A model generated the notes under the pieces. The model saw nothing but the letters and a program-made list of their open reading frames with translations, did not search any database and was not told where the DNA came from. Positions 7,037-51,602 of a stretch of DNA of 64,000 nucleotides are shown here, piece by piece. The translations under genes and the position numbers were made by a program. Where the stretch lies: NCBI RefSeq assembly GCF_036507355.1, contig NZ_AP027877.1; one strand, written 5' to 3'. This DNA is from Escherichia coli (GTDB taxonomy: Bacteria; Pseudomonadota; Gammaproteobacteria; Enterobacterales; Enterobacteriaceae). Position 1 is the stretch's first letter; every line of letters begins with the position of its first letter.

Positions 7037-7930
7037 ATGACGAATTTAAAAGCAGTTATTCCTGTAGCGGGTCTTGGGATGCATATGTTGCCTGCCACTA
7101 AGGCGATTCCCAAAGAGATGCTACCGATCGTCGACAAGCCAATGATTCAGTACATTGTTGACGAGATTGTGGCTGCAGGGATCAAAGAAATCCTCCTGGT
7201 AACTCACGCGTCCAAGAACGCGGTCGAAAACCACTTCGACACCTCTTATGAATTAGAATCTCTCCTTGAACTGCGCGTGAAGCGTCAACTGCTGGCGGAA
7301 GTACAGTCCATTTGCCCGCCGGGCGTGACAATTATGAACGTGCGTCAGGGTGAACCTTTAGGTTTGGGCCACTCCATTTTATGTGCACGACCTGCCATTG
7401 GTGACAATCCATTTGTCGTGGTGCTGCCAGACGTTGTGATCGACGACGCCAGCGCCGACCCGCTGCGCTACAACCTTGCTGCCATGATTGCGCGCTTCAA
7501 CGAAACGGGCCGCAGCCAGGTGCTGGCAAAACGTATGCCAGGTGACCTCTCTGAATACTCTGTCATCCAGACCAAAGAGCCGCTGGACCGCGAAGGTAAA
7601 GTCAGCCGCATTGTTGAATTCATCGAAAAACCGGATCAGCCGCAGACGCTGGAATCAGACATCATGGCCGTTGGTCGCTATGTGCTTTCTGCCGATATTT
7701 GGCCGGAACTTGAACGCACTCAGCCAGGTGCATGGGGGCGTATTCAGCTGACTGATGCCATCGCCGAACTGGCAAAAAAACAGTCCGTTGATGCCATGCT
7801 GATGACAGGTGACAGCTACGACTGCGGTAAAAAAATGGGCTATATGCAGGCATTCGTTAAGTACGGACTGCGCAACCTGAAGGAAGGGCCAAAGTTCCGT
7901 AAGAGCATTGAGAAGTTGCTCGGGGAATAG
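7037..7930 (+). CDS. galF: UTP-glucose-1-phosphate uridylyltransferase paralogue GalF (297 aa)
   Basis: ATG at 7037 preceded by GGTGGA; protein begins [14 protein letters not shown]; conserved position before the O-antigen cluster. Confidence 0.9.
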
Positions 7931-8184
7931 ATCCAAGCCAATGTAACAATAATTTAGATAAATAGCGGCAGCTAACATTCCGGCGTCTATGCTTTAAACA
8001 AAGGAATGTTACTGTCGTTTTTCTTTTTAAAACAAAGAATAACAACGAGTTAACCTACTAAGTTTAATCTATTTTTTGTTGGATTTATCCTTGTTTCTGA
8101 CAGCATTTGGTAAGACAATTGGCGTTTGAATTTAAGATAGCTTTGCGATAGCTAGCGGGGCGGGGTACATCTTTGGCATTTTGC

Positions 8185-8223
8185 TAGTGCACTGGTAGCT
8201 GTTAAGCCAGGGGCGGTAGCGTG
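8185..8223 (+). promoter_or_regulatory. JUMPstart element with ops (GGCGGTAG) upstream of the O-antigen cluster
   Basis: Sequence cagtgcactggtagctgttaagccaggggcggtagcgtg; ops core at 8212-8219. Confidence 0.65.
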
Positions 8224-8322
8224 GTAAGATTGTGTTTATATGATGCGTTCTCAAAATAAGAAATAATAATCCTGACTATTTTTATACTATTGATAATATC
8301 TGAAATAAACTTAAGAGCAAAC

Positions 8323-9327
8323 ATGAAAGTAATTGTAAATAATTTTTTTGATGGTATTTTGAAAAGAGGAATACCGATCTATACTTCTGAACTTGTGCAA
8401 AAGTTAAGAGACAATAATGTTCAGGTTATTTATGTTGCATGTCCAAAAGCATTCCATAAGCTGCCTTCATGGTTTCTGAATGTTCTTTTTATAATAGTAG
8501 AGCAGCTTTTAATACCAATTATGGGTATATTTTATAGAACTAAGTATAATATATATCCCTATAATAGTAGTTCCATCATTGACTTGTTATTAGGTAAGGC
8601 AATTGTTATAATTCATGACTTCATTAGTCTTAAGAAAAATAAACGAAATCTTGCTGCCATTTATGTGAAAGTCTGTATTTATTTTTCATCTTTTTTAGCA
8701 AAGAAAGTAATATTTATTTCTCAAAGCACTCAGCGAGTATCTAAGAGAATATCGCTATTTAAGTGTATAGAATCTATCCTGCTCCCAAATCCATTTTTCT
8801 CATTTGAGAAAATTGCTAATGTTACCGAAATAAAAGATCTTGGATATTTACTTCTAGTTTCAGGTTTAGGGGATAATAAGGATCTAGGCACAGCTCTGGA
8901 CTATTATTTTTCAATCCCAAGGGAAGAAAGAATACCATTAAAAATATTAGGTTGTGGGAATGGTATTAGCAAGGTTAACGACTTAATTGATGGGCGGGAT
9001 ACAGATAAAGAAATTGAAATTATTGGTTTTGTTTCTTTAGAGGAAGTCGTCAAACTATATTGTAATTCTAAAATTGTTTGGGCTCATTCGCTTGCCGAGG
9101 GGTATGGGAGGACTTTAGCTGAAGCAAAACTCACATGCAAAAATGTTATATGCACACGGATCTCTGCTTTCCGCGAACAAAAGGATTCGAATATTTTCTT
9201 TTATACTTACTATTCTGAGTATTATGAAGTCTATTCATACTTGGTAGATAATTCACCCAGTGTCGAAAGGAAAGCTCTGCATGAACATATTTTATTTGAA
9301 AATGAATTGAGAAAGATTTATGAGTAA
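8323..9327 (+). CDS. Putative O-antigen glycosyltransferase (about 334 aa)
   Basis: Low-GC ORF, first gene after JUMPstart; ATG at 8323 (track start 8290 is TTG). Function inferred from context only. Confidence 0.5.
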   Translation: MKVIVNNFFDGILKRGIPIYTSELVQKLRDNNVQVIYVACPKAFHKLPSWFLNVLFIIVEQLLIPIMGIFYRTKYNIYPYNSSSIIDLLLGKAIVIIHDFISLKKNKRNLAAIYVKVCIYFSSFLAKKVIFISQSTQRVSKRISLFKCIESILLPNPFFSFEKIANVTEIKDLGYLLLVSGLGDNKDLGTALDYYFSIPREERIPLKILGCGNGISKVNDLIDGRDTDKEIEIIGFVSLEEVVKLYCNSKIVWAHSLAEGYGRTLAEAKLTCKNVICTRISAFREQKDSNIFFYTYYSEYYEVYSYLVDNSPSVERKALHEHILFENELRKIYE

Positions 9328-10522
9328 TATTGATATAAATAAGAAACAGATCTTAGTTTTGACTCCACGGTTCCCGTTTCCTGTCATTGGTGGGGATCGA
9401 TTACGTATCTATAAGATCTGTAAAGAACTGTCTAAGCATTATGATCTTACGTTGCTGAGTCTGTGTGATAAACGCGAAGAGCTCAACTATGAATATGATC
9501 GTGAAGTTTTTAGTAGTGTTCACAGAGTATATCTTTCAAAGAAAAAATCTATTTTAAATGTCATATTCTCTTTGTTTTCAAATACTCCCCTACAGATTGG
9601 GTATTATAAATCTAAAGAATTTGAAGATAAACTTAAGCAGTTATTACCTGAACATTCTGCAACTCTTTCACATTTGATAAGGGTTGGTGATTATGTGAAA
9701 GAGAATAAAGATATAAATTTTTTAGAGATGACCGATGCCATTTCACTTAATTATAAACGAGTAAAGGAAAAAGCATCTTTATTGAGTTTAAAAACATTTG
9801 TATATTCTTTTGAACAAAAAAGACTCGAACGATATGAGCGAACTATAAATAACAAGTTCAGCTTGACTACTTTAGTATCACAGGTTGACTCCGATTATTT
9901 ATATCCAGACCGTCCGAATAATGTATTAGTCTGTGGAAATGGTGTTGATGCCGTTAGCTTACCTTTTTCAGAACGAAAAATAGCTAAAGATAAAAAGATA
10001 ACCCTTGTATTTATAGGTAATTTATATTCTTTGCAAAATATGGATGGTGTGAGATGGTTCACCAAGGAAGTTTTACCATTTCTTAACAAGCATGGTAATT
10101 TTGAATTTAAGGTCATCGGACGTATTACAGATAAAGATAAGAGTTGGTTAGAAAGCCAGCCTGGCGTTGTTGTCACAGGTGAAGTTGATAGCATAACTTA
10201 TGCAGCAGCTGATGGGCATATTGGTGTATGTCCTATTAGATTAGGGGCAGGTATCCAAAATAAGGTACTTGAATATATGGCGTTGGGATTACCTTGTATC
10301 TCTTCTACTGTAGGCTTTGAAGGCTTGGGAGCAGAGGAGGGTAAGGAGATTTATGTTGCCAATACAAAAGAAGAATATTTACGTGTATTAAATTATTTTA
10401 TAACAAATCTGGATAAATATACCGAAACAGCATTAGTTGCGAAAAAGTTCATCGGTGAGAATTTTTCATGGGAAGCTAAATTGAGCCCATATATCCAGAA
10501 AATTAAGGAGTCTGTTAAATAA
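9320..10522 (+). CDS. Glycosyltransferase, GT4 family (400 aa)
   Basis: C-terminal GT4-type region (GxxE...E motifs); low GC; inside the O-antigen cluster. Confidence 0.7.
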
Positions 10523-10523
10523 A

Positions 10524-11939
10524 ATGATTATCCCAATTATTATGGCCGGTGGTTCTGGTACTCGCTTATGGCCTCTTTCGCGTTCGTTATACCCGAAACA
10601 ATTTTTATCATTGATTAATGAAAATAGTTTGCTCCAGGAAACGTTGAAGAGACTTGATGGATTAAATTGTTTGCCTCCTGTCATTGTTAGCAATAATGAG
10701 CATAGATTTATTGTTGCTGAACAATTGCGCCAGTTCGGTGTGGATGACTTCCAGATTATTCTAGAACCTGTAGGTAGAAATACTGCGCCCGCCGTTGCGC
10801 TGGCTGCTCTAAAGTCTCTAGAACTCCATGGCGATCATCATATGCTGGTTCTTGCTGCTGACCATGCTATTCAGGATATTGAAGCCTTCCATGCAGCTGT
10901 TTTAGCTGCAGAACAAGAGTCCGTTGACAATAAGTTAGTGACTTTTGGCATCGTCCCGACCAAACCTGAAACTGGGTATGGCTATATTAAAAAGGGCGAA
11001 CAAGTTAAAAACTCTGTATTTAAAGTAAATTCTTTCGTCGAAAAACCTGATTTAGAAACGGCTAAAAATTATCTCGAACAAAAATGCTATTTGTGGAATA
11101 GTGGTATGTTCATGTTCAAGGCGAGCGTATATTTAGATGAATTGAAAAAATTTCGCCCTGATATTTTAGCAGCGTGTAAAGAGTCGCTTTCCAGTGCTAG
11201 TACTGATCTAGATTTTATCAGATTAAATTCTGATGTCTTTGCAGAATGTCCCGATGAGTCAATTGATTATGCGGTAATGGAAAAAACTCAGGATTGTGTA
11301 GTTATTCCACTTGATGCTGACTGGAGTGACATCGGTTCATGGACATCACTTTGGGAAATATCAGAGAAAGATGAACATGAAAACGTATCGCATGGCGATG
11401 TAATTAACTATAACAGCAGGAACAACTACATTTACTCTGAAGGTTCACTGATCAGCACTGTAGGAGTTAATAACCTTATTATAGTTCAAACTAAAGATGC
11501 GCTCCTGGTAGCACAGCAAGACAACGTACAAGACATAAAGAAGATTGTCGAAATTCTTAAAAAGCAAAAACGTAGCGAACATGTATCCCATCGCGAAGTC
11601 TATCGTCCTTGGGGACGTTATGATTCTGTAGAACGTGGCGACCGTTATCAGGTAAAACGTATTACCGTTAAGCCTGGTGAATGTCTCTCAACACAAATGC
11701 ATCATCATCGAGCTGAGCATTGGGTGGTTGTCGCTGGTACTGCAAAGGTGACTTGCGGCGAACGCACTTTTTTCGTCACTGAAAATGAGTCAACTTTCAT
11801 ACCAATTGGCACAGTTCATACCTTGGAAAATCCAGGAAAGATACCATTAGAAGTAATTGAGATTCAGTCGGGTGTATATCTAGGTGATGATGATATTGTG
11901 CGCCTAAGTGATAAATATGGTCGTGTTGAGGATAAATAA
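10524..11939 (+). CDS. manC: Mannose-1-phosphate guanylyltransferase / mannose-6-phosphate isomerase (471 aa)
   Basis: N-terminal nucleotidyltransferase motif ([15 protein letters not shown]) and C-terminal cupin isomerase region. Confidence 0.85.
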
Positions 11940-11943
11940 TTAT

Positions 11944-13365
11944 ATGAATATTACCAATGATGTAATTAAAAATAGCGGAATTGCATTTGGTACAAGTGGT
12001 GCTCGTGGATTAGTGAAAGATTTTACACCCAACGTGTGTGCTGCATTCACTTATGCTTTTATCGATGTAATGATGAAGGATTTTTCTTTTAAAGAGGTTG
12101 CGCTCGCAATAGATAATCGGCCAAGCAGCTATGCTATGGCACAAGCTTGCGCAGCAGCATTGTTGGAATGTAGTATTAAACCTATTTACTACGGTGTAAT
12201 TCCAACTCCAGCTTTGGCAAATCAAGCGATTGCCGATGGGATTCCTGCAATAATGGTTACTGGAAGTCATATTCCATTTGATAGAAATGGTTTGAAATTC
12301 TATCGTCCAGACGGGGAAATTTCAAAAGAAAATGAGAACAGCATTATACATGCTGAAAAAGAGTATCCTGATGTAACTGTATTGCCAGAATTACAATGTT
12401 CAAAGCGTGCCGCTGATACTTATATCGAGAGAAACACTTCAATTTTTTCAAATATATTTAAAGGTAAACGTATCGGGATTTATGAACATTCAAGTGCGGG
12501 ACGGGATCTTTATTCAGAAATATTCAGTAAACTTGGTGCTGAAGTTGTAAGTATTGGTAGAAGTGATAAGTTTGTGCCTATTGATACTGAAGCAGTATCA
12601 AAAGAAGATGAAGAAAAAGCTTTACACTGGTCATCTGAGTATGACCTCGATATGATTTTTTCTACCGATGGTGATGGCGATCGTCCTTTGGTTGCTGACG
12701 AAAATGGCGTTTGGTTACGGGGTGATATATTAGGACTATTTTGCTCAAAGGCAATGAATATTGAAGCGGTAGCTGTACCTGTAAGTTGTAATACGGTTAT
12801 TCAGACTTGCGGGTGGTTTAATCATGTAACGCTGACTAAAATTGGTTCACCATACGTCATTTCAGCGTTTGATTCTCTGAATAATAGTTTTGATAGGGTT
12901 GCAGGGTTTGAGGCTAACGGTGGGTATCTTTTAGGTAGCGATGTAAATTATAACAGCGGTATGATTAAAGCGCTTCCAACAAGAGATGCTGTTTTGCCTG
13001 CTTTAATGGTACTGGCACTGGCTATAAAAAATAATGTGACTATTTCAAAACTCTTGGCGGAGTTGCCACCACGATTTACCTACTCAAATAGAGTTCAAAA
13101 TTTTGCAACAAGCAAAAGCAAAAGCATTATCGCGTCAGCTCAAGAAAATCCTCAAGAATTTATCGAAAGAATAGGCTTTGTCGATCTTCATGTACAATCG
13201 GTGGATACAATTGACGGGTTAAGATTGACACTAAGTGATGGTTCAATAATCCATTTGCGACCGTCAGGCAACGCACCTGAATTGCGATGCTATGCAGAAG
13301 CAGATAACATAATAAAAGCTGAAAAATTAGTGTTAGAAGTTTTGCATAAAGTTACTCTTTTGTAA
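11944..13365 (+). CDS. manB: Phosphomannomutase
   Basis: Phosphohexomutase motifs ([22 protein letters not shown]); start set at ATG 11944. Confidence 0.85.
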
Positions 13366-13547
13366 AAAATATAAACTTTTTTCTACTCTTGAGCGGTTTG
13401 TCATTTAACCGCTCAGTAATAGATTGTTTATAAATTGTTTATATTTAGCATTGGTGTTTTTATTTGCGTTCATCCCGAATAAGAGATTGTAAAATTAACT
13501 GTTTCTTATTTTTCAAATGAGTTACTTCACTAGTAAAGCTAATTACT

Positions 13548-14879
13548 ATGCATAAGCAATATTATTTATTATTGTGCAATAAAATACAGTTTAAACATCT
13601 GGCTATATATTTTTCTGTATTTCTTTCACTATCCTCATGTTTCTTGTGGGGAGGGGCGGATACATTTGTATCGCAAGTGTATATTGATATTTTAGCCACT
13701 ATATCTACAGCGCTATTAGTTATTTTGATGTTCTATTATTATATTAATAGAGTTCGCTATTTATCACTAACCTTACTTTTTGCATTCGTTTTTTCTTTGA
13801 TTATTGGTTTGCCATCGATTTATCTTTACTATTTTAAAAACGCAAATCATGGGTTTGAAATAATTTGTATCTGGGGGATGTTGATCAATTCCATCCTTTA
13901 CTTGCAAACAACAGAGACTGTCATAAAAGAAGAAAAAAGATATTTAACTAGTTTATTTTATATTTTGTTTTCTATTGTTGCACTGTGTCAATTATACAAA
14001 ATATTAATTTATCTTATGTTTATATTGAATTCAGGAGAAGGGCATTTAGCAATTTATACTGAAAGCGAAGAATTGCTATCCCAAGTTCCATTTTTTATTC
14101 GTGCTATTAGTGGTTTTGCAGTTGTAATGTCATTGTCCACTTTTTATTTTAAAACACCGACCTACATTAAAGTTATTGCATTTGTTTTACTTGCATCTGA
14201 TTTAGCTATTGGAATACGTAATAAGTTTTTCTTTTCAGTGATTTGTATTTTTATACTATATATGTACTCTAATGAGTATAGAGTAAGAAATTTATTTAAG
14301 CAGCTCTCAAAACCAATATTTCTCATCGCCGGTTTTTTATGCTTCTCGATGGTATCGTATTTCCGTGAAGGGTACCAAATCGATTTTATGATTTATATTG
14401 GCATTGTTTTAGATTCGCTATCCTCTACTCTTGGGGGGATGCAGAATTTGTTTGATATGCAATCATCAGGATGGGATCAACTTCATCCCGCTGTGGTATT
14501 CACACAAGTATTACCGCTAAGCGGTCTTGGTTTTCTTGATGATCAACAAATCGCAAAAGATTTTTCAATAATTGTTTTAGGTGATGTATCCTCTGGTATT
14601 GCGTTGTCATCTTCAGGATTGTTAGAGTCATCGTTGCTGAGTCTAAACTTGGGAGTGATTATTTATTTACTGTATTTATCAGGGGTGATGCTATTTATTA
14701 AATGGGGACTAAATAATCAACGGATAATAATAAACTTTGTTGCCATCTCCATGATATCTGGATTTTTTTATGCTGTTCGTGGTGAACTGATTTTGCCATT
14801 GGCTTTTCTTCTAAAATCATTGCCGATTGTTCTTATATCTCCATTACTTGTTAAAAATAAAATTTATCATGGTCAGTAA
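13548..14879 (+). CDS. wzy: Putative O-antigen polymerase (443 aa, polytopic membrane protein)
   Basis: Very hydrophobic, low-GC, many predicted TM segments, located in the O-antigen cluster; assignment by context. Confidence 0.5.
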   Translation: MHKQYYLLLCNKIQFKHLAIYFSVFLSLSSCFLWGGADTFVSQVYIDILATISTALLVILMFYYYINRVRYLSLTLLFAFVFSLIIGLPSIYLYYFKNANHGFEIICIWGMLINSILYLQTTETVIKEEKRYLTSLFYILFSIVALCQLYKILIYLMFILNSGEGHLAIYTESEELLSQVPFFIRAISGFAVVMSLSTFYFKTPTYIKVIAFVLLASDLAIGIRNKFFFSVICIFILYMYSNEYRVRNLFKQLSKPIFLIAGFLCFSMVSYFREGYQIDFMIYIGIVLDSLSSTLGGMQNLFDMQSSGWDQLHPAVVFTQVLPLSGLGFLDDQQIAKDFSIIVLGDVSSGIALSSSGLLESSLLSLNLGVIIYLLYLSGVMLFIKWGLNNQRIIINFVAISMISGFFYAVRGELILPLAFLLKSLPIVLISPLLVKNKIYHGQ

Positions 14880-14920
14880 GTGGTTTATTTTTCGACCAGG
14901 ATCTCACCAGTAGGCATGAC

Positions 14921-16156
14921 ATGATCAAAGAAATTTTCTCCGATGGCATTTTTTCGCTATTTAATAAAATATGTTACTTCGGTTTTAAAACACTTGCAAT
15001 AATTCTGATTACTCGTTCCTTAGGAGAAGATGTAGGCGGAGAGTTCATTTTTTTAGTTGGTTTTCTCGAAGTCCTTCGGGTGGTTACTGATTTTGGTGTG
15101 GATCTGTTTGTTATAAAAAAATATAATGATTCTACAGATAAAATAAAACTATTAAATGTAACGTTTGCACAAAAAATTCTTTCTGGAGTAATTGTTTTAC
15201 TACTGTTTTGTTTGTATTCTTTTGTTCAGGGTTATCAATATAATGTCTATATTCCTATTGTGTTAGCCTTACCTGTTGCTTTATTTTTTAATTTCTCAAA
15301 TAGCTATTTTCAATCTCTAAATTCCAATAAATCTCTCACGTTTCCGATCGCAATTGCATCTATTGCAACGTGTACGATCTTCGCTATTCAGTATTTTTTC
15401 AACGTTAAATTTAACGCATGGGATTACCTGTGTGTTGAACTATTATTCGTATCGCTGGTTACACTAAAACTATTCGTTAGTGTCAAGTTTAGGTTTATTA
15501 GAACGTCAGCTTTTGATGTGCTAATGTCAATTCTTTCTTTATATAAATATACATTAAGTATAGGTCTTACAGCTGTTGTTGTAATTATTTATAGCCGTAT
15601 AGATAATTTTTATCTCAAGACATTTGCCCCAGGGGATCTTGCAGCATATGGCCAGATATTTAGGATGGTTGATCCACTGGTTATGGTTTCTTCTGTATTT
15701 TCTACAGTTGCCTATGCAAGATTTTGCCGAATTAACTTACAAGAAAAAAATACTTTTACTAAGGTGTTTCAGTTCCTGTTATGTATTGTGGCATATGGCG
15801 TGCTGAGTTCATTAGTTTATTTCTTTATAATAAAATACCTGGGTCATTTTGTATTGATTTCTAATGTTAATAATGATTTCTTGATAATGATGTTCTTGAT
15901 TGTTGCATGTGTGAAATGTATCAATGGTGGTACAACTGCAATAATTCAGTCACAGGGGTTTTATAAAGTGGGTTTGTATGTTTCGTATGTTTGCATTTTG
16001 ACATCGATACCAACTATGTATTTCTTAATAATGAAGTACGGTGTTAAAGGTGCTGCTATGACGATTCTGCTTGTAGAGTGTATTAGTTTCATATTACTTC
16101 TCTGCAGCTTTTTTATGATAAAAAAGATGCGTCCTAAAAAAACATTCGAAATGTAA
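14921..16156 (+). CDS. wzx: Putative O-antigen flippase (411 aa)
   Basis: Polytopic membrane protein with polysaccharide-biosynthesis-protein-like N-terminus; last gene before gnd. Confidence 0.55.
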   Translation: MIKEIFSDGIFSLFNKICYFGFKTLAIILITRSLGEDVGGEFIFLVGFLEVLRVVTDFGVDLFVIKKYNDSTDKIKLLNVTFAQKILSGVIVLLLFCLYSFVQGYQYNVYIPIVLALPVALFFNFSNSYFQSLNSNKSLTFPIAIASIATCTIFAIQYFFNVKFNAWDYLCVELLFVSLVTLKLFVSVKFRFIRTSAFDVLMSILSLYKYTLSIGLTAVVVIIYSRIDNFYLKTFAPGDLAAYGQIFRMVDPLVMVSSVFSTVAYARFCRINLQEKNTFTKVFQFLLCIVAYGVLSSLVYFFIIKYLGHFVLISNVNNDFLIMMFLIVACVKCINGGTTAIIQSQGFYKVGLYVSYVCILTSIPTMYFLIMKYGVKGAAMTILLVECISFILLLCSFFMIKKMRPKKTFEM

Positions 16157-16308
16157 TCAATGAGTCCTCTTTGAATAGAATTAGTTTGTTCTATTTATGA
16201 ACACTTAGCTTGAGTAAGTTCTAACATAGATTACTAATTGTTTGATACTATCTGCTTTACAAGCATAACCGCGTATGTCGCGGTGACCACACCTGACAGG
16301 AGTATGTA

Positions 16309-17715
16309 ATGTCCAAGCAACAGATCGGCGTCGTCGGTATGGCAGTGATGGGGCGCAACCTGGCGCTCAACATCGAAAGCCGTGGTTATACCGTCTCCGT
16401 CTTCAACCGCTCCCGCGAAAAAACTGAAGAAGTTGTTGCCGAGAACCCGGGTAAGAAACTGGTTCCTTATTACACGGTGAAAGAGTTTGTCGAGTCTCTT
16501 GAAACCCCTCGTCGCATCCTGTTAATGGTGAAAGCAGGTGCAGGCACGGATGCTGCTATTGATTCCCTCAAACCATATCTCGATAAAGGTGACATCATCA
16601 TTGATGGTGGTAACACCTTCTTCCAGGACACTATTCGTCGTAATCGTGAGCTTTCAGCAGAGGGCTTTAACTTCATCGGTACCGGTGTTTCCGGCGGTGA
16701 AGAGGGGGCGTTGAAAGGGCCTTCCATCATGCCTGGTGGGCAGAAAGAAGCCTATGAACTGGTTGCACCAATTCTGACCAAAATCGCCGCAGTAGCTGAA
16801 GACGGTGAGCCATGCGTTACCTATATTGGTGCCGATGGCGCAGGTCACTATGTGAAGATGGTTCACAACGGTATTGAATACGGCGATATGCAACTGATTG
16901 CTGAAGCCTATTCTCTGCTTAAAGGTGGTCTGAACCTCACCAACGAAGAACTGGCGCAGACCTTTACCGAGTGGAATAACGGTGAACTGAGCAGCTACCT
17001 GATCGACATCACCAAAGATATCTTCACTAAAAAAGATGAAGACGGTAACTACCTGGTTGATGTGATTCTGGATGAAGCAGCAAACAAAGGTACCGGTAAA
17101 TGGACCAGCCAGAGCGCGCTGGATCTCGGAGAACCGCTGTCGCTGATTACAGAGTCTGTGTTTGCACGTTATATCTCTTCTCTGAAAGATCAGCGCGTTG
17201 CCGCTTCTAAAGTTCTCTCTGGCCCGCAAGCGCAGCCAGCAGGCGACAAGGCTGAGTTCATCGAAAAAGTTCGTCGTGCGCTGTATCTGGGCAAAATCGT
17301 TTCTTACGCTCAGGGTTTCTCTCAGCTGCGCGCAGCGTCTGAAGAGTACAACTGGGATCTGAACTACGGCGAAATCGCGAAGATTTTCCGTGCTGGCTGC
17401 ATCATCCGTGCGCAGTTCTTGCAGAAAATCACCGATGCTTATGCCGAAAATCCACAGATCGCTAACCTGCTGCTGGCTCCGTACTTCAAGCAAATTGCCG
17501 ATGACTACCAGCAGGCGCTGCGTGATGTCGTTGCTTATGCAGTACAGAACGGTATCCCGGTTCCGACCTTCGCTGCTGCGGTTGCCTATTACGATAGCTA
17601 CCGTGCCGCTGTTCTGCCTGCGAACCTGATCCAGGCACAGCGTGACTATTTCGGTGCGCATACTTATAAGCGCATTGATAAAGAAGGTGTGTTCCATACT
17701 GAATGGCTGGATTAA
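16309..17715 (+). CDS. gnd: 6-phosphogluconate dehydrogenase, decarboxylating (468 aa)
   Basis: N-terminal Rossmann motif [15 protein letters not shown]; conserved position after the O-antigen cluster. Confidence 0.95.
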
Positions 17716-19273: not shown

Positions 19274-20254
19274 ATGATGAGAGTAGAAAATAATAATGTT
19301 TCTGGGCAAAACCATGACCCGGAACAGATTGATTTGATTGATTTACTAGTGCAGTTGTGGCGTGGCAAGATGACAATCATCATTTCCGTCATTGTGGCTA
19401 TTGCCCTGGCTATTGGATATTTGGCAGTAGCGAAGGAGAAATGGACGTCAACAGCAATTATCACTCAGCCCGACGTGGGGCAAATTGCTGGCTATAACAA
19501 TGCCATGAATGTTATCTATGGTCAGGCTGCGCCGAAAGTATCGGATTTACAGGAAACGTTGATTGGTCGCTTCAGTTCTGCCTTCTCTGCATTAGCAGAA
19601 ACGTTGGATAATCAGGAAGAGCCAGAAAAACTTACCATCGAACCTTCTGTTAAGAACCAGCAATTACCATTGACTGTTTCTTATGTTGGGCAAACTGCAG
19701 AGGGCGCACAAATGAAGTTGGCCCAATACATTCAGCAAGTTGACGATAAAGTGAATCAAGAGCTAGAAAAGGATCTCAAGGACAACATTGCTCTGGGACG
19801 GAAAAACTTGCAGGACTCTTTAAGAACGCAGGAAGTAGTCGCGCAGGGGCAGAAAGATCTGCGTATCCGTCAGATTCAGGAAGTGTTGCAGTATGCGAAT
19901 CAGGCGCAGGTGGCAAAGCCACAGGTTCAGCAGACTGAAGATGTGACGCAAGATACGTTGTTCCTTTTGGGTAGCGAAGCGCTGGAGTCGATGATTAAGC
20001 ATGAGGCGACCCGTCCGTTGGTGTTCTCATCAAACTACTATCAGACACGTCAAAACCTGCTGGATATCGAAAGCTTAAAGGTTGATGATCTTGATATTCA
20101 TGCTTACCGCTATGTGATGAAACCGACGTTACCTATTCGTCGCGATAGCCCGAAAAAGGCAATTACCTTGATTCTGGCGGTGCTGCTGGGTGGCATGGTT
20201 GGCGCGGGGATTGTCTTGGGGCGTAACGCTCTGCGTAATTACAACGCGAAGTAA
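19274..20254 (+). CDS. wzzB: O-antigen chain-length determinant (326 aa)
   Basis: Two TM segments flanking a coiled periplasmic domain; start set at ATG 19274 rather than track start 19241. Confidence 0.85.
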   Translation: MMRVENNNVSGQNHDPEQIDLIDLLVQLWRGKMTIIISVIVAIALAIGYLAVAKEKWTSTAIITQPDVGQIAGYNNAMNVIYGQAAPKVSDLQETLIGRFSSAFSALAETLDNQEEPEKLTIEPSVKNQQLPLTVSYVGQTAEGAQMKLAQYIQQVDDKVNQELEKDLKDNIALGRKNLQDSLRTQEVVAQGQKDLRIRQIQEVLQYANQAQVAKPQVQQTEDVTQDTLFLLGSEALESMIKHEATRPLVFSSNYYQTRQNLLDIESLKVDDLDIHAYRYVMKPTLPIRRDSPKKAITLILAVLLGGMVGAGIVLGRNALRNYNAK

Positions 20255-32950: not shown

Positions 32951-34375
32951 TTAGACAATCTCTTCCGCGTACTGCCAAAGCGCTTTTAACAGCGCCACTT
33001 TTTCTTTATCGTCGGCATACTGCTGCGCCAGCATCTGAATCTCTTCTGCATAGCCTTGTAAAAACACGGGTGTGAATACCTGGCGGCGGTGTTCCAGCCA
33101 GCGTTGCTGCTCGGCATAATCCAGCGTCCCCGGGAAGTTGCGCGCCCGATAATTGAACAACAGCTTTTCAATCCGTTTATCGACAAAAGTGATATCCAGT
33201 GCCGGTAAATTACGTGGCTCGGTTTCCAGCACAATTTTCATTGCTGCACGATCGGCGTCACTGAAAAAGCCGTTATAAAGCTGTGCATCCACGTTATCTG
33301 AAGGCGTAAACGGTTCGGCTTCCGCGAATATCGCCACCACTTTTTCGCGCACTTGCGGATTTTCACGCAGAATTTTCAGGTTATCGAGGCAATGCTGACG
33401 ATTAATTCCCAGTCGGTCGGCATCTTCCGGGCGTAGCGTATTCGCCTGGGCCAGCACCGGACATTTATTGATATGCACCAGCTTAACCGGAACGGCGGCG
33501 TTATCGCCAAGATCGGTTTTTGCGGTATATAAACGCTCGCGCAATGTGTCGCTATCCAGTTCCAGTAATGGCGAAATGTCTCCTGCCAAATCCACCATAA
33601 TTACGGCATTGCGATTTTCAGGATGCCACGCCAGCGGTGCCACCCAGCTGGTATTGCCGCGCCATGCCCCAAACATTCCGGAAACGTGAACCAGGGGTTT
33701 CATCTGCGGAACATCAATCAACGCCATCAGTTTGTGTTTATTGCGATGGGTAAAGAGATAATCAAACAGGCGTGGCTGACGCGTTTTTACCAGCTTTGCC
33801 ATCGCAATAGTGGCGTACACATCAGCCATCGCATCGTGGGCGTTGCTATGTTCAATTCCATTCGCTTTGGTTAAATGCTCAAGGCGAAAGCTCGGTAGAC
33901 CGTCATCATTTTCAGGCCAGTTTATTCCTTCCGGGCGCAGGGCATAACAGGCACGCATAACATCAAGTAAATCCCAGCGCGAGTTATCATGCTGCCAGCT
34001 CCAGGCGTAAGGATCGTAGAAATTACGATAAAAAATGTTGCGTGTGACTTCGTCGTCGAAACGCACATTGTTGTAGCCCAGAATACAGGTCTTCGGTACG
34101 GTAAAAAGCGAGTGAATACGGGCGGTAAACGCGGCTTCGTTTTCTCCTTTCGCCCGTGCTTCCTGCGGGGTAATACCGGTAATTAATATGGCTCCAGGCT
34201 GGGGTAAATAGTCATCCGCAGGCTTGCAGTAAAAGACTTCGGGTTCGCCGATGACATTGAATTCGCTATCGGTGCGAATGGCTGCGAACTGTGCAGGGCG
34301 ATCTAACGCGGGGTGCGTGCCAAAGGTTTCGTAATCGTGAAAGAGGAAGGTAGGTTGTTTATCTGTGTCTGTCAT
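32951..34375 (-). CDS. sbcB: Exodeoxyribonuclease I (474 aa)
   Basis: DEDDh exonuclease N-terminus (FHDYETFG); position. Confidence 0.9.
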   Translation of the reverse strand: MTDTDKQPTFLFHDYETFGTHPALDRPAQFAAIRTDSEFNVIGEPEVFYCKPADDYLPQPGAILITGITPQEARAKGENEAAFTARIHSLFTVPKTCILGYNNVRFDDEVTRNIFYRNFYDPYAWSWQHDNSRWDLLDVMRACYALRPEGINWPENDDGLPSFRLEHLTKANGIEHSNAHDAMADVYATIAMAKLVKTRQPRLFDYLFTHRNKHKLMALIDVPQMKPLVHVSGMFGAWRGNTSWVAPLAWHPENRNAVIMVDLAGDISPLLELDSDTLRERLYTAKTDLGDNAAVPVKLVHINKCPVLAQANTLRPEDADRLGINRQHCLDNLKILRENPQVREKVVAIFAEAEPFTPSDNVDAQLYNGFFSDADRAAMKIVLETEPRNLPALDITFVDKRIEKLLFNYRARNFPGTLDYAEQQRWLEHRRQVFTPVFLQGYAEEIQMLAQQYADDKEKVALLKALWQYAEEIV

Positions 34376-34556
34376 TGTCTATCATTGTCCACTGTAGTTA
34401 ATTAACTGTCTGTTATAACTCGAAAAACAACCCTTTTTTCACCTGAGTATGTCTACGAACGTCAAATATAGTTGTTTACTGTGCGCTGTTGTCCATGTGA
34501 TATTGTGTACCAGATGTGTACCAAACTATTATTTCTGAGCGTACCAAATATTATTT

Positions 34557-34853
34557 ATGGCTATAAGCGACACAAAACTGCGTACTATTTATGGTAAACC
34601 ATATTCGGGCCCACAAGAAGTGGCTGATGCCGATGGCCTCAGCGTACGAATTTCACCGAAGGGGGTCATCCAGTTCCAGTACCGCTATCGCTGGCATGGC
34701 AAGCCTAATCGACTTGGGCTTGGTCGATACCCATCCCTGTCTTTGAAGGATGCCAGACAGATCACTGCTGACTTGCGAAAGCTCTATTTCTCAGGAACGG
34801 ATCCACGCACCTATTTTGAAGAGAAGGTGGAGAACTCCATGACGGTACGTTAA
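34557..34853 (+). pseudogene. Integrase N-terminal fragment (arm-binding domain only, 98 aa)
   Basis: Resembles the N-terminal arm-binding domain of P4-family integrases (SDTKLRTIYGKP...GLSVRISPKG...YRYRW); ORF stops before any catalytic domain. Confidence 0.6.
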
Positions 34854-34902
34854 TTTCTTCCGGTGTGAGCGTTGGGGAAGTCCATTCCTTGGGCGCGCGG
34901 AT

Positions 34903-35739
34903 TTGAATACTGTGGAGTTCATCAGTGAAGCACCTAAGTTTCTTATGTGTTTCAGTTCTAATTCACCTATAGACGTATGGGACACCGCTGATTTATTTAT
35001 TAGTGAATGCTCAATGTTTGCTGGAGATTTTGCGGTAAGAACACGCACAACACTTGGTGGGATGGGTGGAACAGACCAATTCGCGGGTTATCCGGTTATA
35101 ATTTCAAATAGCGTTTTTGATGCCATCAACGGTACTGCTTTTGATATGGAGAGTCTAGCTTACGCTACCATCAGCGGTAACATTATTAGTGCAGGGAGGA
35201 TAAACAATAGTCGTGGAATTAATATTAAAGGGGCAAGAAACCTAACATTTACAGGAAACACTATCACTTACTGTGGTGAGTTCGGCATGGTATTGGAAAA
35301 TGCTGAACAATGTTCTTTGTCTAATAATATATTCAACGGAAATAAGACTGGTGGGCTATCGTTGGTAAACTGTAAAGAAATATCTGTTATTGGCGGCTCT
35401 ATGGGTACGTCTTATATCAAAGGTGGGTACTACGTGCAACCACTTGGGATCACAGACCCTGCTGATAACTGTAACGGCATAACCATCAATGGCGTTTCTT
35501 TCGATAGCGATATGACAACCAAGATTTACCTTAATACATCGGAAGAGCGCAAAAACCGTATTATAGCTTGTCTAGGTGTTAATGATACTCAGACGACTTA
35601 TCAAAACCGTGGATCTACTGCGCAGCGCCCTACAGCACCAGTCAGTGGGCAGATGTATTATGATACAACGCTAGGTCTTCCAATATGGTATAACACAGTA
35701 TCATCTGAATGGAAGAGGGCGGATGGTACAAGTGTATGA
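34903..35739 (+). CDS. Phage tail fibre / tailspike fragment (beta-helix repeats), probably truncated
   Basis: Low-GC ORF with repeated NxxGxxxxG beta-helix-like segments; no credible N-terminus; directly precedes gtrC as in serotype-converting phages. Confidence 0.55.
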   Translation: MNTVEFISEAPKFLMCFSSNSPIDVWDTADLFISECSMFAGDFAVRTRTTLGGMGGTDQFAGYPVIISNSVFDAINGTAFDMESLAYATISGNIISAGRINNSRGINIKGARNLTFTGNTITYCGEFGMVLENAEQCSLSNNIFNGNKTGGLSLVNCKEISVIGGSMGTSYIKGGYYVQPLGITDPADNCNGITINGVSFDSDMTTKIYLNTSEERKNRIIACLGVNDTQTTYQNRGSTAQRPTAPVSGQMYYDTTLGLPIWYNTVSSEWKRADGTSV

Positions 35740-35770
35740 TAATGCGGGTGCTTAGCACCCGCTTATTTAA

Positions 35771-37237
35771 TTAATTGCAGTTGAATGTAATGTTTTTATC
35801 GTAAACAAAAATCTTCTTATCTCCGACGTCAATAACCTTTGATGGATTACCAATCTCTTTAATTGTTATATTTCTCATAACCTCATCATCTGTAATTATG
35901 AAATTTCCTCCGCGCTCATACCAATAGTTTTTTGACAACCATTTATTGCATGCAAGTATATTCAAACCTCGGTTTACATCAATCGGAGCAATTGATATGT
36001 CTCCATCTATACTTGCTGATGAAGCAAACCAGAAAGATGCATACCCGTTTGTGAGGTTATTCTGCCTTACAGTGTGTTTTATCTGATTTATAATATCATT
36101 AGAATTGTCTTTTTTTTCATGCATATAAATAGAACAAAAGAGAATAAATGTTGTAACAACCCCTAATGCGATGAATTTCCACCCTCTGGAGTTGTTAGAT
36201 CTGCCAATAACAACAGGTGCTAGTATAAAAAATGGAACGATATATCTTATAGTCCATTCATCTATTGGACGGTTACTTGCAAGGTATGCTGGTATCATTA
36301 TAATACAAGCTATACATATAGCCATATTGACCATGGAGGTTTTGAATATTTCCTTTACTGACATTGCAACTAATATAAGAAGTAAAATCATTACAACAAA
36401 ACAAAAAACAGAAATAAGCGCTGTAATATCAGAAGGTGGTTTGCCAAAGAAGAAAGCTCCACTGTATAGGAGGAATCCTTTTACGAATAAGTATAAATTA
36501 TTCAGGATATCATCAAATGCAACAAATGTTGGATCTGGAACGCCTGGCAAAATGTACCAGTTATGAGCTCTTGCGTACATGGTCATAATTTTTGATGCAA
36601 CATATGCAAATATAGTTGCAACTAGTATGATCAGATTTTTTTGGCTTTTGGTTTTTACTATAAAAATCACTGATGATATTGCTACTGGTGCAATAATGAG
36701 TAGCTTTATGATGTCATCACTGAAACAAGCTAGAACTAACACTAAAATATAAAGAGATAGAGAAATTAACGATCTTGTTTTGGAAAAATTGTCTAACATT
36801 ATGAAGCAAAACAACATGGATACATATGTGCCGACATGTATCACAGGTATTAATACGTTTAATACTGCAAACCCAGAAGGCAGCGCAACGCAAAATGAAA
36901 TGGCCCATAACGATGAAAGCCTTTCTTTTGAAAGATAAAATGTCATCAATGTAACCATTGAATACATAATTGCCGGTATGCAGTATGCTTGGTACTGTCC
37001 GTACCAGAATACCTTTGAAGCAAGTCCGTACCATATTATGTCTGTAAAATAGAATGATACTGTAGAGAGATACCATCCACTAAGCGTCCAATTTCCGTCC
37101 GCAATGTCCTTACCCTCAAGAAGTCCAGAAACAGCATCCGAACTTGGCAAAATCTGTTTTGAAATCGAGGCGTAGAAGAAAGTCAAGAATATAAATCCAA
37201 TGATATATATGGCTGTTTTTTTTATATTTAAAGTCAT
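35771..37237 (-). CDS. Serotype-specific O-antigen glucosyltransferase, GtrC-like (488 aa, polytopic)
   Basis: Large low-GC multi-TM protein immediately downstream of gtrB and gtrA in the same operon. Confidence 0.65.
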   Translation of the reverse strand: MTLNIKKTAIYIIGFIFLTFFYASISKQILPSSDAVSGLLEGKDIADGNWTLSGWYLSTVSFYFTDIIWYGLASKVFWYGQYQAYCIPAIMYSMVTLMTFYLSKERLSSLWAISFCVALPSGFAVLNVLIPVIHVGTYVSMLFCFIMLDNFSKTRSLISLSLYILVLVLACFSDDIIKLLIIAPVAISSVIFIVKTKSQKNLIILVATIFAYVASKIMTMYARAHNWYILPGVPDPTFVAFDDILNNLYLFVKGFLLYSGAFFFGKPPSDITALISVFCFVVMILLLILVAMSVKEIFKTSMVNMAICIACIIMIPAYLASNRPIDEWTIRYIVPFFILAPVVIGRSNNSRGWKFIALGVVTTFILFCSIYMHEKKDNSNDIINQIKHTVRQNNLTNGYASFWFASSASIDGDISIAPIDVNRGLNILACNKWLSKNYWYERGGNFIITDDEVMRNITIKEIGNPSKVIDVGDKKIFVYDKNITFNCN

Positions 37238-37238
37238 T

Positions 37239-38153
37239 TTACTTATCCTTTAGAATGTATCTTGGTCGTTGCTTAACTTCAACATAAATTCTTCCTATAT
37301 ACTCTCCAAGAACTCCTATGCCTATTAACTGAACTCCACCAAGAAACAATATTGATACAATGATAGAAGGGTAACCTGGAACACTATTTCCAAACATCAA
37401 TTTATCAGCAATCATCCATGTTCCATAAAGGAATGATAAGGTTGCCACAAACAGGCCTATATAAGTCCACATGCGCAAAGGGAAAGTAGAAAAGCTAGTG
37501 ATCCCTTCCAGCGCTAAGTTCCAGAGCTTCCATCCATTGAACTTTGTGCTTCCTGCAACGCGTTCTGCTCGCGCATATTCTACGACATCGGTTCGACCAC
37601 CAACCCAGCTCAGCACACCCTTCATAAACAGGTTTCGTTCTGGCATGAGCTTAATGTTTTCTACTACTTCGCGAGACATGAGCCGGAAGTCGCCAACATT
37701 TTCTTCTATCTTAGGGTTGCTGATTTTGTTATGAAGCTTATAGAACCACTCAGCAGATTTACGCTTCAGCCTGCTGTCAGTGGAGCGGTCAGAGCGTTTA
37801 GCCAGAACCATATCTGCACCGGCCTGCCATTTCTCTATCAAGTGAGGAATAACTTCGATAGGGTCTTGCAGATCAACGTCAATCGGGATAATTGCCTCCC
37901 CGGTAGCATGGTCCAGGCCTGCGAACAGGGCGGGTTCTTTGCCGAAGTTACGTGTGAACGACAGCGAAACAACAAGCGGGTCGGCAACAGCAAGCTCGTT
38001 GATAATTGATTCTGTAGCGTCTTTGCTGCCATCGTTTATGAAGACTATCTCGACTTCATGCTGCTGAAGCCCTTCAAATTCGCGCACGGTTTTATAAAAA
38101 ATAGGTATCGTGGCCTCTTCGTTAAAGACCGGAACGACTAAAGAAATTTTCAT
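37239..38153 (-). CDS. gtrB: Bactoprenol glucosyltransferase (GT2) GtrB (304 aa)
   Basis: GT2 N-terminal domain (VVPVFNEE...INDGSKD...DVDLQDP) and two C-terminal TM helices. Confidence 0.85.
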
Positions 38154-38512
38154 TTCGCATCCCTAAAGACAATGAACTTTGAATAGACGAAACCGCACAC
38201 CAGGCTGATGGCGGAGAAGGTGATAAGAGTGACAATTGGAGGAAGTGAACATCTATCAGCAGCCCATCCAACAGTAGCACTGAGTGTTCCCATGAACCCG
38301 ACATATAACATGTAGCGCATCGTTGTAGTTGATGCTTTGAATGTGAATTTTGCATTCGCGAAGAAGCTAAAACTCACAGCCACAACAAAACCTGCGAAGT
38401 TTGCCAGAGCCTGATTGGTATGCGCGGCATAGATACAAACACCAAAAACCACCCAGTGTATAAGGGTGTTCAGCACACCAATAGAGGTGTACTTTGCAAA
38501 TAGCTTTAACAT
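38150..38512 (-). CDS. gtrA: GtrA-family flippase for UndP-glucose (120 aa)
   Basis: Small 4-TM GtrA-like protein; overlaps gtrB start by 4 nt. Confidence 0.85.
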
Positions 38513-38642
38513 TTCTTCTATCAGCTAATAATCAAAGGCATGAAGTCTATCATCCAAGTCTCAATCGATCGATACTTGCTGTAATTGCTGAGACAAAACT
38601 GAGACAAACAAAGCTTTGCACTGGTTTGCAAGTCTTTGTGTC

Positions 38643-38714
38643 ATTCGATAGTTAAGGTGGATCCCTCCACCTTTTCATCAAGCCAATCCGCCCACCACTG
38701 CATCATTTCTCTGC
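38643..38714 (-). pseudogene. Remnant of the 3' end of a P4-family integrase gene
   Basis: Minus-strand translation RREMMQWWADWLDEKVEG... parallels the C-terminus (RIEMMQWWSDYLDAN) of the intact integrase at 55789-57066; the upstream frame is closed by a stop. Confidence 0.5.
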
Positions 38715-39307
38715 GCTTAACGTAGCGGATGCCTCACTATCACACGGTGATGGTTCATTACTGCTTTGTAGAATGGATAGAGAACTGAGGATTAAAAGAT
38801 ATCCCAAAACCCCAAAATCTCATCTTTAGGATTTGCAGAAAGGGAGGCGTGAACAGATACCTGCGCATGAAGACGGAACTAGTCCAGATGTGATATTTGT
38901 GGTGATCACATACATCATCAACGATGCTCGTTATGGTGAGTTTGATGACTACCCGATGAAGTGAAAATTGTGTTGTGTACCAAATTGCGTACCAAACTAA
39001 AATTACAAATCATGAAACCCTTGTTCATGGCGGTTCTCAGGGGTGTTGCGCGTAATCGTGAAACAAAAAGGTAGATTGTTGCTTACCGTCATTCATCATT
39101 AGGTTAAATCCGTTATTTCTGCTGTCTGCCAGAGTATCAAATATCACCGTACTAATCAGCTTTAGCGCCACAATTTGGCAGCGAGTGGCAATAGATCATG
39201 TCAGATAAAAATGAGAGGGTAGTCACATTTTCTTGCACTTTATTCCAGCCAGTTCATAAGTATTTCCGTAAAAAGAACAGCTATTTGAAACTCCTGAGGG
39301 TTTGCTG

Positions 39308-49135: not shown

Positions 49136-49808
49136 TGCGGATTTTGTTGTAGTTTATTGAATTTAAATGATTTTTATGAGTAGAATAAAAATAAGGCCCT
49201 TAGAAAGGCCCCTCAGATATTTTTGCTTAAAAAGATGATGTAAGTCACATTTTCAGGGGCTGTTACCTGGAGGTCTTAAAACCAACGAGAGGTCGTCATT
49301 CCTGGCGTATAGCGGGAATGCACCAGACATACAGAAACAGGGACTTGCACCAGCTTTAATATAGCTGGCTGCACCAGATCCTGGCGCTGCAAAAGTCCAT
49401 GATTGCGCCAGATTCTGAGGGATTACATCGATCTGAGCCAGAGTTGTCCCTTTGGGTTATAGCCTTTTCAGGTCAGGTGCTGTTACCCTTAGCTGGCCTT
49501 TACCCTTTTCCTTTTGACCGTCGGCTATGTGCCAAAAGCGGAATTCCAGTGGTTCTAGAAAAGCTATCATTCCATGGTCAAATTTTGTCGATCACTGCAC
49601 TTATGGAACCGCCATAACATAGGTAGATAGTTGAAGATAGCTAGAACGATGATAGATGATTTTCTTTACAGGGCTGACTTCTAGTCTATCTCATGTAATA
49701 CTCTATATTATATCTAATGTACAATATTAATAGCATTGTGATGTATCGACAACATGGATAGTCCACTGCTATTAAAACTATAATGACATTTAATTGAGAA
49801 ATATAAAA

Positions 49809-51579: not shown

Positions 51580-51602
51580 GTTGGAGTCATTACCTACAAT
51601 GT

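Follow-up and report, generated by a model that had tools for sequence, protein, structure and literature searches.

Assignment of a low-GC Escherichia coli galF–gnd interval to the O77-group O-antigen gene cluster

Between galF (7037–7930) and gnd (16309–17715), a 64-kb stretch of Escherichia coli DNA (the window, 64,000 nucleotides, numbered from its first base) carries a compact interval at 8185–16156 with the appearance of an O-antigen locus. The question raised by this interval is which O antigen it specifies, whether the gene set is complete, and how far the expressed serogroup can be read from it.

Identity and integrity of the locus

The + strand has exactly six long ORFs between galF and gnd, preceded by a JUMPstart element. 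The features of the locus are as follows.

8185–8223, + strand: JUMPstart element (Rfam RF01707, 59.2 bits, gathering score 35, E 1e-11)
8323–9327, + strand: GT1, a 334-aa GT-B (GT4-like) transferase (Pfam PF00534 Glycos_transf_1-type match, 41.7 bits)
9320–10522, + strand: GT2, a 400-aa GT-B transferase of a distinct subfamily (Pfam PF13692, 69.3 bits; TIGR03087, 209 bits, below cut-off)
10524–11939, + strand: manC, mannose-1-phosphate guanylyltransferase / mannose-6-phosphate isomerase (TIGR01479, 754.6 bits, cut-off 373)
11944–13365, + strand: manB, phosphomannomutase (four PGM_PMM domains; RefSeq 'phosphomannomutase')
13548–14879, + strand: wzy, O-antigen polymerase of the O17/O44/O73/O77/O106 family (near-identity to RefSeq-named genes)
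14921–16156, + strand: wzx, O-unit flippase of the O17/O44/O73/O77/O106 family (named so by RefSeq in loci with 99.8% identity)
19277–20254, + strand: wzzB, chain-length regulator, downstream of gnd and ugd (Pfam Wzz, 67.8 bits; RefSeq wzzB at the matching K12a position)

Start codons follow RefSeq, with GT1 beginning at ATG 8323 and not TTG 8290, and manB at ATG 11944 and not GTG 11908. The GC content of the interval is 0.346 (34.6%), compared to 0.521 in galF, 0.507 in gnd, 0.53 in the wca genes, and about 52% in the flanks of the cluster. The first-pass annotation of this DNA had described six low-GC genes running from JUMPstart to gnd, and RF01707, the ORFs, and the GC content reproduce that description to the base. 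The ops octamer GGCGGTAG is found at 8212–8219, inside JUMPstart, and is the sole copy in the 64-kb window; taken alone the octamer is within chance, with at least one copy in 76 of 100 shuffles. In O-antigen operon leaders JUMPstart/ops serves as an RfaH-dependent antitermination signal, and transcription from upstream would read through the six genes with RfaH recruited at this element.

We identify the interval as the E. coli O77-group O-antigen gene cluster (Iguchi Gp9; O17/O44/O73/O77/O106), operating by the pathway given below, with a probability of about 0.93. It is a Wzx/Wzy-dependent locus in the usual galF–gnd position, no ABC transporter genes (wzm/wzt) were found in the galF–gnd interval, and the cluster is an intact, ordinary copy of one already described rather than a new one. 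Across 8,301 bases, the nucleotide sequence is 99.8% identical to that of 92 complete E. coli genomes, the O17 reference K12a among them, with 17 SNPs and one single-base indel, which is intergenic. No 100%-identical copy was found among complete RefSeq genomes. K12a carries these six genes, likewise between galF and gnd and in this order (GT1, GT2, manC, manB, wzy, wzx), and the two are co-linear over 8.3 kb of annotation. The sole gap, and only indel, is one intergenic base in a poly-A run just past the manB stop, at 13363. All six proteins are intact relative to K12a with 0–2 substitutions each, including one in ManC, one in ManB, and none in GT1 (WP_000864846.1) or GT2 (WP_000065081.1).

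The published O77-group cluster, described by Wang et al. 2007 (cited in PMC7685785), contains exactly these six genes. Clusters of O17, O44, O73, O77, and O106 are >99% identical (PMC7685785), and within Gp9 the glycosyltransferases are 100% identical (PMC4379981). Membership in an Iguchi group is defined by wzx and wzy with ≥95–97% DNA identity to the reference genes of the group (PMC4379981), and the wzy and wzx genes here are 99.7–99.8% identical to those of K12a (O17) and 042, among 93 genomes. The strain thus falls in the 'O77g' genoserogroup, home of ST69 uropathogenic and STEC lineages and of the 2025 French HUS outbreak strain.

Assignment of wzy rests on 99.7% nucleotide identity to genes with the RefSeq name O17/O44/O73/O77/O106 in 93 of 5,426 complete E. 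coli genomes; the protein has about 10 hydrophobic segments, no Pfam match, and a TIGR04370 score of 30.8 bits where the cut-off is 40. The wzx product has about 12 hydrophobic segments and matches Pfam PF01943 Polysacc_synt (29.3 bits, cut-off 28.2). These matches bear on a reading that we consider extremely improbable, namely that the locus is what remains of a once larger O-antigen cluster, truncated or no longer functional, or that the wzy and wzx labels are swapped. Decay of this locus does occur, as strain G4/9, which has the closest flanks (99.7%), carries the same cluster with an IS3 in manC and many frameshifts. In the window, however, none of the six ORFs is broken, all are co-linear with the locus in the O17 reference and in 92 complete genomes, and both the published cluster and a syntenic Salmonella cluster have these six genes; the cluster is full length and is therefore not the deletion derivative that the first-pass annotation had named as a possible objection. 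The same annotation had labeled wzy and wzx from topology and context. RefSeq names at 99.8%-identical loci give the same order, so the labels are not reversed, and the Polysacc_synt match falls on 14921–16156 and the polymerase-family match on 13548–14879. The relic and swapped-label readings are refuted at the sequence level by the intact, co-linear ORFs and by family matches that fit the labels.

Precursor supply and assembly of the repeat unit

No rml genes and no sugar-nucleotide pathway other than that for GDP-mannose were found in the galF–gnd interval, in agreement with the earlier claim that GDP-mannose is the only precursor encoded and that dTDP-rhamnose genes are absent. ManC combines NTP_transferase and MannoseP_isomer domains, and together with ManB would supply GDP-mannose. 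The published repeat unit of the group is →6)-α-Man-(1→2)-α-Man-(1→2)-β-Man-(1→3)-α-GlcNAc-(1→ (PMC7685785). Among the six cluster proteins there was no match to the Bac_transf or MraY-type initiating transferase families (Pfam, NCBIfam). Because the cluster has no initiating transferase and the published unit starts with GlcNAc, WecA, encoded elsewhere, would place GlcNAc-1-P on undecaprenyl phosphate. A short mannose repeat on a WecA-initiated sugar had been predicted from the gene content, and the Man3-GlcNAc unit in the literature is what that prediction calls for.

Three mannose residues would be added by the two GT-B transferases to give Man-(α1→2)-Man-(α1→2)-Man-(β1→3)-GlcNAc-PP-Und. 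From their family memberships, Wzx would flip this unit, Wzy is expected to polymerize it by forming the α-GlcNAc-(1→6)-Man linkage that joins repeat units, WzzB would act on the resulting O77-group polymer to set chain length, and WaaL would ligate the polymer to the core. Both wecA and waaL lie outside the 64-kb window.

With three Man linkages and only two GT-B transferases, one enzyme would have to act twice, and addition of two Man per unit has been proposed as the work of one glycosyltransferase (PMC7685785). The first-pass annotation had not covered this disparity, nor that the locus was already named and published. E. coli O9a WbdB, among other mannosyltransferases, likewise adds two successive Man, but it forms α-1,3 links in an ABC-transporter pathway, whereas the links here are α-1,2 and the pathway is Wzx/Wzy.

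The two transferases match the Pfam families Glycos_transf_1 or Glyco_trans_1_4, and no significant sequence similarity to solved or characterized enzymes was found for either. We tentatively assign both α-1,2 steps to GT1 and the β-1,3 step on GlcNAc-PP-Und to GT2, at slightly better than even odds. In GT1, residues 259–267 (EGYGRTLAE) form an EX7E motif of the canonical kind seen in retaining GT4 enzymes, and searches against PDB gave weak alignments (E 0.095 and 0.39) to GT4 enzymes across these residues. The family alignment of GT2 shows a distinct invariant motif, R-L-G-A-G-V-Q-N-K-x-L-E-Y-M, and an invariant Ala (Ala310 in GT2) where EX7E has its first Glu. The reverse allocation, with GT2 as a retaining α-1,2-mannosyltransferase acting twice and GT1 forming the β-1,3 bond to GlcNAc, is a serious competitor at somewhat under even odds. 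The AlphaFold model of GT2 (pLDDT 90.5) has as its nearest solved folds only retaining GT4/GT5 enzymes, including the mannosyltransferases 7qsg (E 8e-18) and PimA (2gej), although a GT-B fold alone does not separate retaining from inverting chemistry. The RefSeq label of GT2 is 'family 4', its N-domain retains a GG loop as well as an invariant His118, and the N-terminal half of GT1 is short and atypical, with two hydrophobic stretches; set against these are the canonical EX7E of GT1 and the Ala substitution and Q-N-K motif of the GT2 family. Both proteins look like retaining GT4-type enzymes, though one of the two must form the β-Man bond. To our knowledge, formation of such a bond is not known for GT4 enzymes.

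The gtr operon and the expressed serogroup

The five serogroups are not told apart by wzx/wzy (PMC13094856; PMC4732683), so the cluster alone does not give a serogroup call, as had been conceded at first pass. Glucose side-branches of O17, O44, O73, and O106 have been assigned to gtr genes outside the cluster (PMC7685785; PMC13188871), which supports the earlier suggestion that the polymer is glucosylated by a gtr module elsewhere. One such module is visible in the 64-kb window, with no second one, in the following remnant.

34360–39050, no strand: degraded prophage remnant with gtr operon, in the 5' end of sbcB (boundaries by comparison to an empty site)
35771–37237, − strand: gtrC-type gene for a 488-aa polytopic membrane protein, a putative backbone-specific glucosyltransferase (gtrC position)
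37239–38153, − strand: gtrB, bactoprenol glucosyltransferase of family GT2 (Pfam PF00535 Glycos_transf_2, 106.4 bits; Sf-phage homology)
38150–38512, − strand: gtrA, Und-P-glucose flippase component (Pfam PF04138 GtrA_DPMS_TM, 51.8 bits)

The operon lies 20 kb from the O-antigen cluster. Boundaries of the remnant were set against the empty sbcB–dacD site of strain G4/9, and an imperfect repeat of about 30 bp flanks it (34330–34359 and 39051–39080). It consists of an N-terminal integrase fragment (34557–34853; Arm-DNA-bind_3, 68.5 bits), a truncated tailspike (34903–35739; Beta_helix domain), and gtrCBA. At the nucleotide level the gtrA/gtrB segment is about 80% identical to Shigella phages SfI, SfII, SfIV, and SfV, and the gtrC-type gene had no match in the phage collection searched. 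Its product has about 10 hydrophobic segments and no Pfam family.

The gtrC-type gene was identified in 24 of 5,426 complete E. coli genomes, one cryptic clade I strain and ST69 strains among them, and all 24 also carry the O77-group wzy (hypergeometric P 1.7e-44, a figure that ignores shared ancestry). An 89% homologue of GtrC occurs in Salmonella serovars Carrau and Florida, in the same assemblies, by accession prefixes, as the syntenic O cluster. This co-occurrence ties the GtrC type to the O77-group backbone. That this GtrC acts on the backbone at all appears likely, and the module (35771–38512) probably adds, in the periplasm, a glucose branch that sets the serogroup.

We consider it unlikely that the module is silent or has another substrate, in which case the strain would make O77 polymer without branches, or its serogroup would depend on a different gtr locus beyond the window. 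Some evidence does point that way. The host prophage is heavily decayed, with only fragments of integrase and tailspike, and a gtr module at the 5' end of sbcB was seen in none of the 5,426 complete genomes. This gtrC is missing from 69 of the 93 genomes with this wzy, and phase variation can occur in the gtr operons of related systems. O73 and O106 moreover require two glucose branches (PMC10304059), and the window shows one module. Yet gtrA, gtrB, and gtrC each have their full length and share 99% identity with alleles in many genomes, and persistence of an intact operon within an eroded prophage suggests selection. The exclusive pairing of this gtrC type with the backbone cluster (24/24 in E. 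coli), together with the 89% homologue that accompanies the syntenic cluster in Salmonella genomes, also argues for a working module acting on this backbone.

On that favored reading, the expressed serogroup is probably a glucosylated member of the group and not plain O77. The gtrC-type gene is absent from K12a (O17) and 042 (O44), which leaves O73, O106, or an unnamed form. The side-branch enzymes of O73 and O106 were reported as unidentified in 2023 (PMC10304059), and our search found no published assignment of a gtrC to either. This gtrC is present in the 2025 French HUS outbreak strain, and none of the five antisera agglutinated it (CNREC_004-43; PMC13094856), while typing of a related strain gave O73. 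The 488-aa protein may be a glucosyltransferase specific to the O77-group backbone and could define O73 or O106; that it defines an unrecognized sixth antigenic form of the group seems improbable. Typing by wzx/wzy cannot split O77g, and the strict co-occurrence of this gtrC type with the backbone cluster in both E. coli and Salmonella makes it a candidate sequence marker for doing so.

The Salmonella locus has the same gene order (GT-GT-manC-manB-wzy-wzx-gnd-ugd-wzz). Its six genes are 70–82% identical to those here at the amino-acid level and about 71–74% at the nucleotide level, and it is a homologue from another genus with a different allele. Serovars Carrau, Florida, and Uzaramo presumably have O:6,14 formulas in the Kauffmann-White scheme. 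Salmonella enterica O:6,14 (group H) shares the four-sugar backbone (PMC4732683). A gtr mechanism like that of Shigella flexneri has been proposed for the O77 group (PMC7685785). The S. flexneri modules of SfI, SfII, SfIV, SfV, and SfX are likewise three-gene operons at a prophage end with a variable, polytopic, serotype-specific third gene, but their acceptor is a rhamnose backbone, in contrast to the mannose backbone here, and the prophage in the window, unlike the Sf phages, is a 4.7-kb stump.

The O-antigen cluster and its known relatives

Six long plus-strand ORFs, and no other sizeable ORF, lie between galF (7037-7930) and gnd (16309-17715). They are preceded by a JUMPstart element and are arranged as follows.

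Features of the galF-gnd interval
8185-8223, plus strand: JUMPstart element (Rfam RF01707)
8323-9327, plus strand: GT1, first of two glycosyltransferases (Glycos_transf_1 / Glyco_trans_1_4 in Pfam and NCBIfam)
9320-10522, plus strand: GT2, second glycosyltransferase (same matches)
between GT2 and manB, plus strand: manC (TIGR01479, 754.6 bits)
from 11944, plus strand: manB, phosphomannomutase with four domains (Pfam/NCBIfam)
13548-14879, plus strand: wzy, without a Pfam match; TIGR04370 (O-unit polymerase family) at 30.8 bits, below the cut-off of 40
14921-16156, plus strand: wzx, Polysacc_synt (29.3 bits, cut-off 28.2)

The start codons of GT1 (ATG at 8323) and manB (ATG at 11944) were trimmed to those used by RefSeq. 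The JUMPstart match reaches 59.2 bits (E = 1e-11), above the model's gathering score of 35. The ops octamer (GGCGGTAG) lies inside it at 8212-8219 and occurs once in the window; because 64 kb yields one by chance, the octamer was rejected as independent evidence, and the covariance-model match is the evidence for JUMPstart. A promoter and terminator scan of 7900-16400 gave the same counts as shuffled sequence and was uninformative. GC content is 0.346 across 8185-16156, compared to 0.51-0.53 in galF, gnd, and the wca genes. ORF, Pfam, and NCBIfam scans found no rml genes and no further nucleotide-sugar pathway between galF and gnd. The first-pass annotation had placed a low-GC cluster of these six genes here, without rml and with GDP-mannose as its sole precursor pathway; its coordinates and gene content were exact, and its reading of composition and of precursor supply (manC and manB) was borne out.

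Megablast of positions 8000-16300 against 5,426 complete E. coli genomes returned full-length matches at 99.8% identity in 92. RefSeq names in the matching loci are "wzy: O17/O44/O73/O77/O106 family O-antigen polymerase" and "wzx: O17/O44/O73/O77/O106 family O-antigen flippase". One of the 92, K12a, is the O17:H18 reference strain (PMC13248637). Its annotated genes run in the same order as those of the window (galF, GT, GT4-family GT, manC, manB, wzy, wzx, gndA, ugd, wzzB, his), and base by base the two clusters are separated by 17 substitutions and a single-base indel. This indel, at 13363, leaves the window one A shorter in a poly-A run directly 3' of the manB stop and does not affect coding. 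At the protein level, GT1 and GT2 are identical to those of K12a, the remaining four differ at one or two residues, and all six are intact. By its sequence, then, the cluster is an already known locus, as the first-pass annotation had correctly read it. Two alternatives named beforehand are excluded by the same comparisons: a deletion derivative of a larger cluster by the intact, co-linear match to K12a and the full-length matches in 92 genomes, and a swap of wzy and wzx by K12a gene order and by RefSeq naming at 99.8%-identical loci, which agrees with the order originally assigned. The cluster copy of strain G4/9 (NZ_CP060073.1, 8840-17347) has an IS3 in manC and numerous frameshifts; these defects are possibly real, possibly assembly errors, and the window copy is intact.

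According to a review, the clusters of the five serogroups are more than 99% identical and specify the common backbone ->6)-D-Manp-(a1->2)-D-Manp-(a1->2)-D-Manp-(b1->3)-D-GlcpNAc-(a1-> (PMC7685785). The same review describes O77 as linear and the other four as carrying D-Glc side-branches, for which prophage gtr genes are the proposed source, confirmed for O44 (PMC7685785). The short mannose repeat, WecA-initiated sugar, and glucosylation by a gtr module elsewhere that had been proposed from the window match this published picture (PMC7685785). Iguchi et al. designate the group Gp9, with transferases 100% identical among O17, O44, O73, and O77 (PMC4379981). The five are inseparable by genoserotyping and are labelled "O77g" (PMC13188871, PMC13094856).

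According to DebRoy et al., the backbone is common to Salmonella O:6,14 (PMC4732683). The closest non-E. coli relative of GT2 is a Salmonella protein (78% identity), and Salmonella contigs encoding it have the order GT-GT-manC-manB-wzy-wzx-gnd-ugd-wzz, as in the window. Compared with the window, the products of the six cluster genes share 70-82% amino-acid identity, those of gnd 96% and those of ugd 89%. This syntenic cluster fits the counterpart known from the literature.

Roles of the two transferases

Two transferases face three mannose linkages, which a review explains by one transferase adding two mannoses (PMC7685785). In GT1, residues 259-267 (EGYGRTLAE) form a canonical EX7E motif, as in retaining GT4 enzymes. 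Neither GT1 nor GT2 matched a PDB sequence at E <= 0.01. At E <= 10, GT1 aligned weakly over EX7E to GT4 structures (two PDB matches); GT2 matched only SarA, which was rejected as spurious, and its family profile gave weak GT-B matches (E >= 0.0014). An alignment of 22 GT2-family sequences (45-78% identity) shows an invariant Ala at the position of the first Glu of EX7E and, in place of EX7E, an invariant R..AG.QNK..E motif (RLGAGVQNK.LEYM). No solved relative of the GT2 subfamily was detectable by sequence. An AlphaFold model of GT2 (pLDDT 90.5) had only generic retaining GT-B neighbours (GT4/GT5) in a Foldseek search of the PDB, with TM scores of ~0.6-0.7, and did not reveal which enzyme makes the beta-mannose bond; fold does not decide between a retaining and an inverting mechanism. 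Because GT1 keeps EX7E and the GT2 family has the Ala and the QNK motif, we put at slightly better than even odds that GT1 would form both alpha-1,2 links and GT2 the beta-1,3 link. Members of the GT2 subfamily with 45-55% identity are widespread and occur in Enterobacteriaceae, Vibrio, Shewanella, Aeromonas, and Burkholderia.

A gtr module in a prophage remnant within sbcB

The glucosylation (gtr) module is found in a ~4.7 kb insert (34360-39050) in the 5' end of sbcB, with boundaries defined by comparison with G4/9, which has the closest flanks (99.7%) and a sbcB-dacD gap of 208 bp.

Features of the insert
34557-34853, plus strand: P4-type integrase fragment, 98 aa, arm DNA-binding domain only
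34903-35739, plus strand: truncated right-handed beta-helix tailspike
35771-38512, minus strand: gtr module of three genes
35771-37237, minus strand: gtrC-type gene, assigned by position
37239-38153, minus strand: gtrB (PF00535)
38150-38512, minus strand: gtrA (PF04138)

Imperfect repeats of ~30 bp (34330-39080 overall, core CGTAATCGTGAAA) border the insert. In the right-hand copy the native opening codons of sbcB survive, displaced to 39051-39100; the left-hand copy supplies a phage-derived N-terminus, with which the sbcB ORF stays intact. Both the integrase fragment and the tailspike are left over from the phage that carried in the gtr genes. In G4/9, a 98.9% identical segment with the tailspike fragment and gtrCBA belongs to what remains of a P22-like prophage at thrW/proA, and DLI.6n has a full prophage adjoining dacD that carries gtrABC with another gtrC. 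The window's arrangement occurs in 0 of 5,426 complete E. coli genomes. Its gtrA and gtrB have ~80% nucleotide identity to those of Shigella phages SfI, SfII, SfIV, and SfV; the gtrC-type gene (488 aa, about 10 hydrophobic segments, no Pfam family) matched none of 50,697 phage records.

Association of gtrC with the backbone, and serogroup

A concatenated gtrC and wzy query against the 5,426 genomes matched 117 places in 93 genomes. The window's gtrC type was present in exactly 24, all of which (24/24) also carry the O77-group wzy; in the remaining 69 genomes only wzy is present (hypergeometric P = 1.7e-44, shared ancestry ignored). The carriers are not one clone: among them are STEC of ST69, the commensal strain G4/9, isolates from ducks and cattle, and 2013C-4282, which belongs to cryptic clade I (PMC10100065).

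With 24 protein clusters among 5.8 billion sequences, the GtrC-type family is small. One homologue, at 89%, carries the names of the Salmonella serovars Carrau and Florida, and its accession prefixes correspond to those of the Salmonella GT2 homologue, partly named from serovar Uzaramo, indicating that both are in the same assemblies; we take all three serovars to be O:6,14. Further homologues (31-33% identity) are named from Oranienburg and Choleraesuis, presumably group C1 with a likewise mannose-rich backbone, which hints at a family specialised for mannose-rich O units. Beyond the literature searched, the only addition is one uncharacterised GtrC type that appears strictly tied to this backbone in two genera, together with the unusual location of the prophage stump in sbcB.

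One glucose is present in O17 and O44 and two in O73 and O106, and as of 2023 no enzymes had been assigned to the O73 side-branches (PMC10304059). The window's gtrC type is absent from K12a (O17) and 042 (O44), so the module does not specify a K12a- or 042-type branch. It is carried by the 2025 French outbreak strain CNREC_004-43, which was agglutinated by none of the five antisera and has a related older strain typed O73 (PMC13094856). No published gtrC-to-serogroup map for O73 or O106 was found in the literature searched. If the module is active, the serogroup of the window's strain can be narrowed only to O73, O106, or an unnamed form.

An island (49794-57066) lies downstream of nac and cbl; it may represent a retron, or an element resembling a group II intron, within an integrative island.

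Features of the island
49794-50831: reverse-transcriptase ORF (RVT_1)
51076-51579: IS1 transposase
52450-53409: integrase gene
55789-57066: integrase gene
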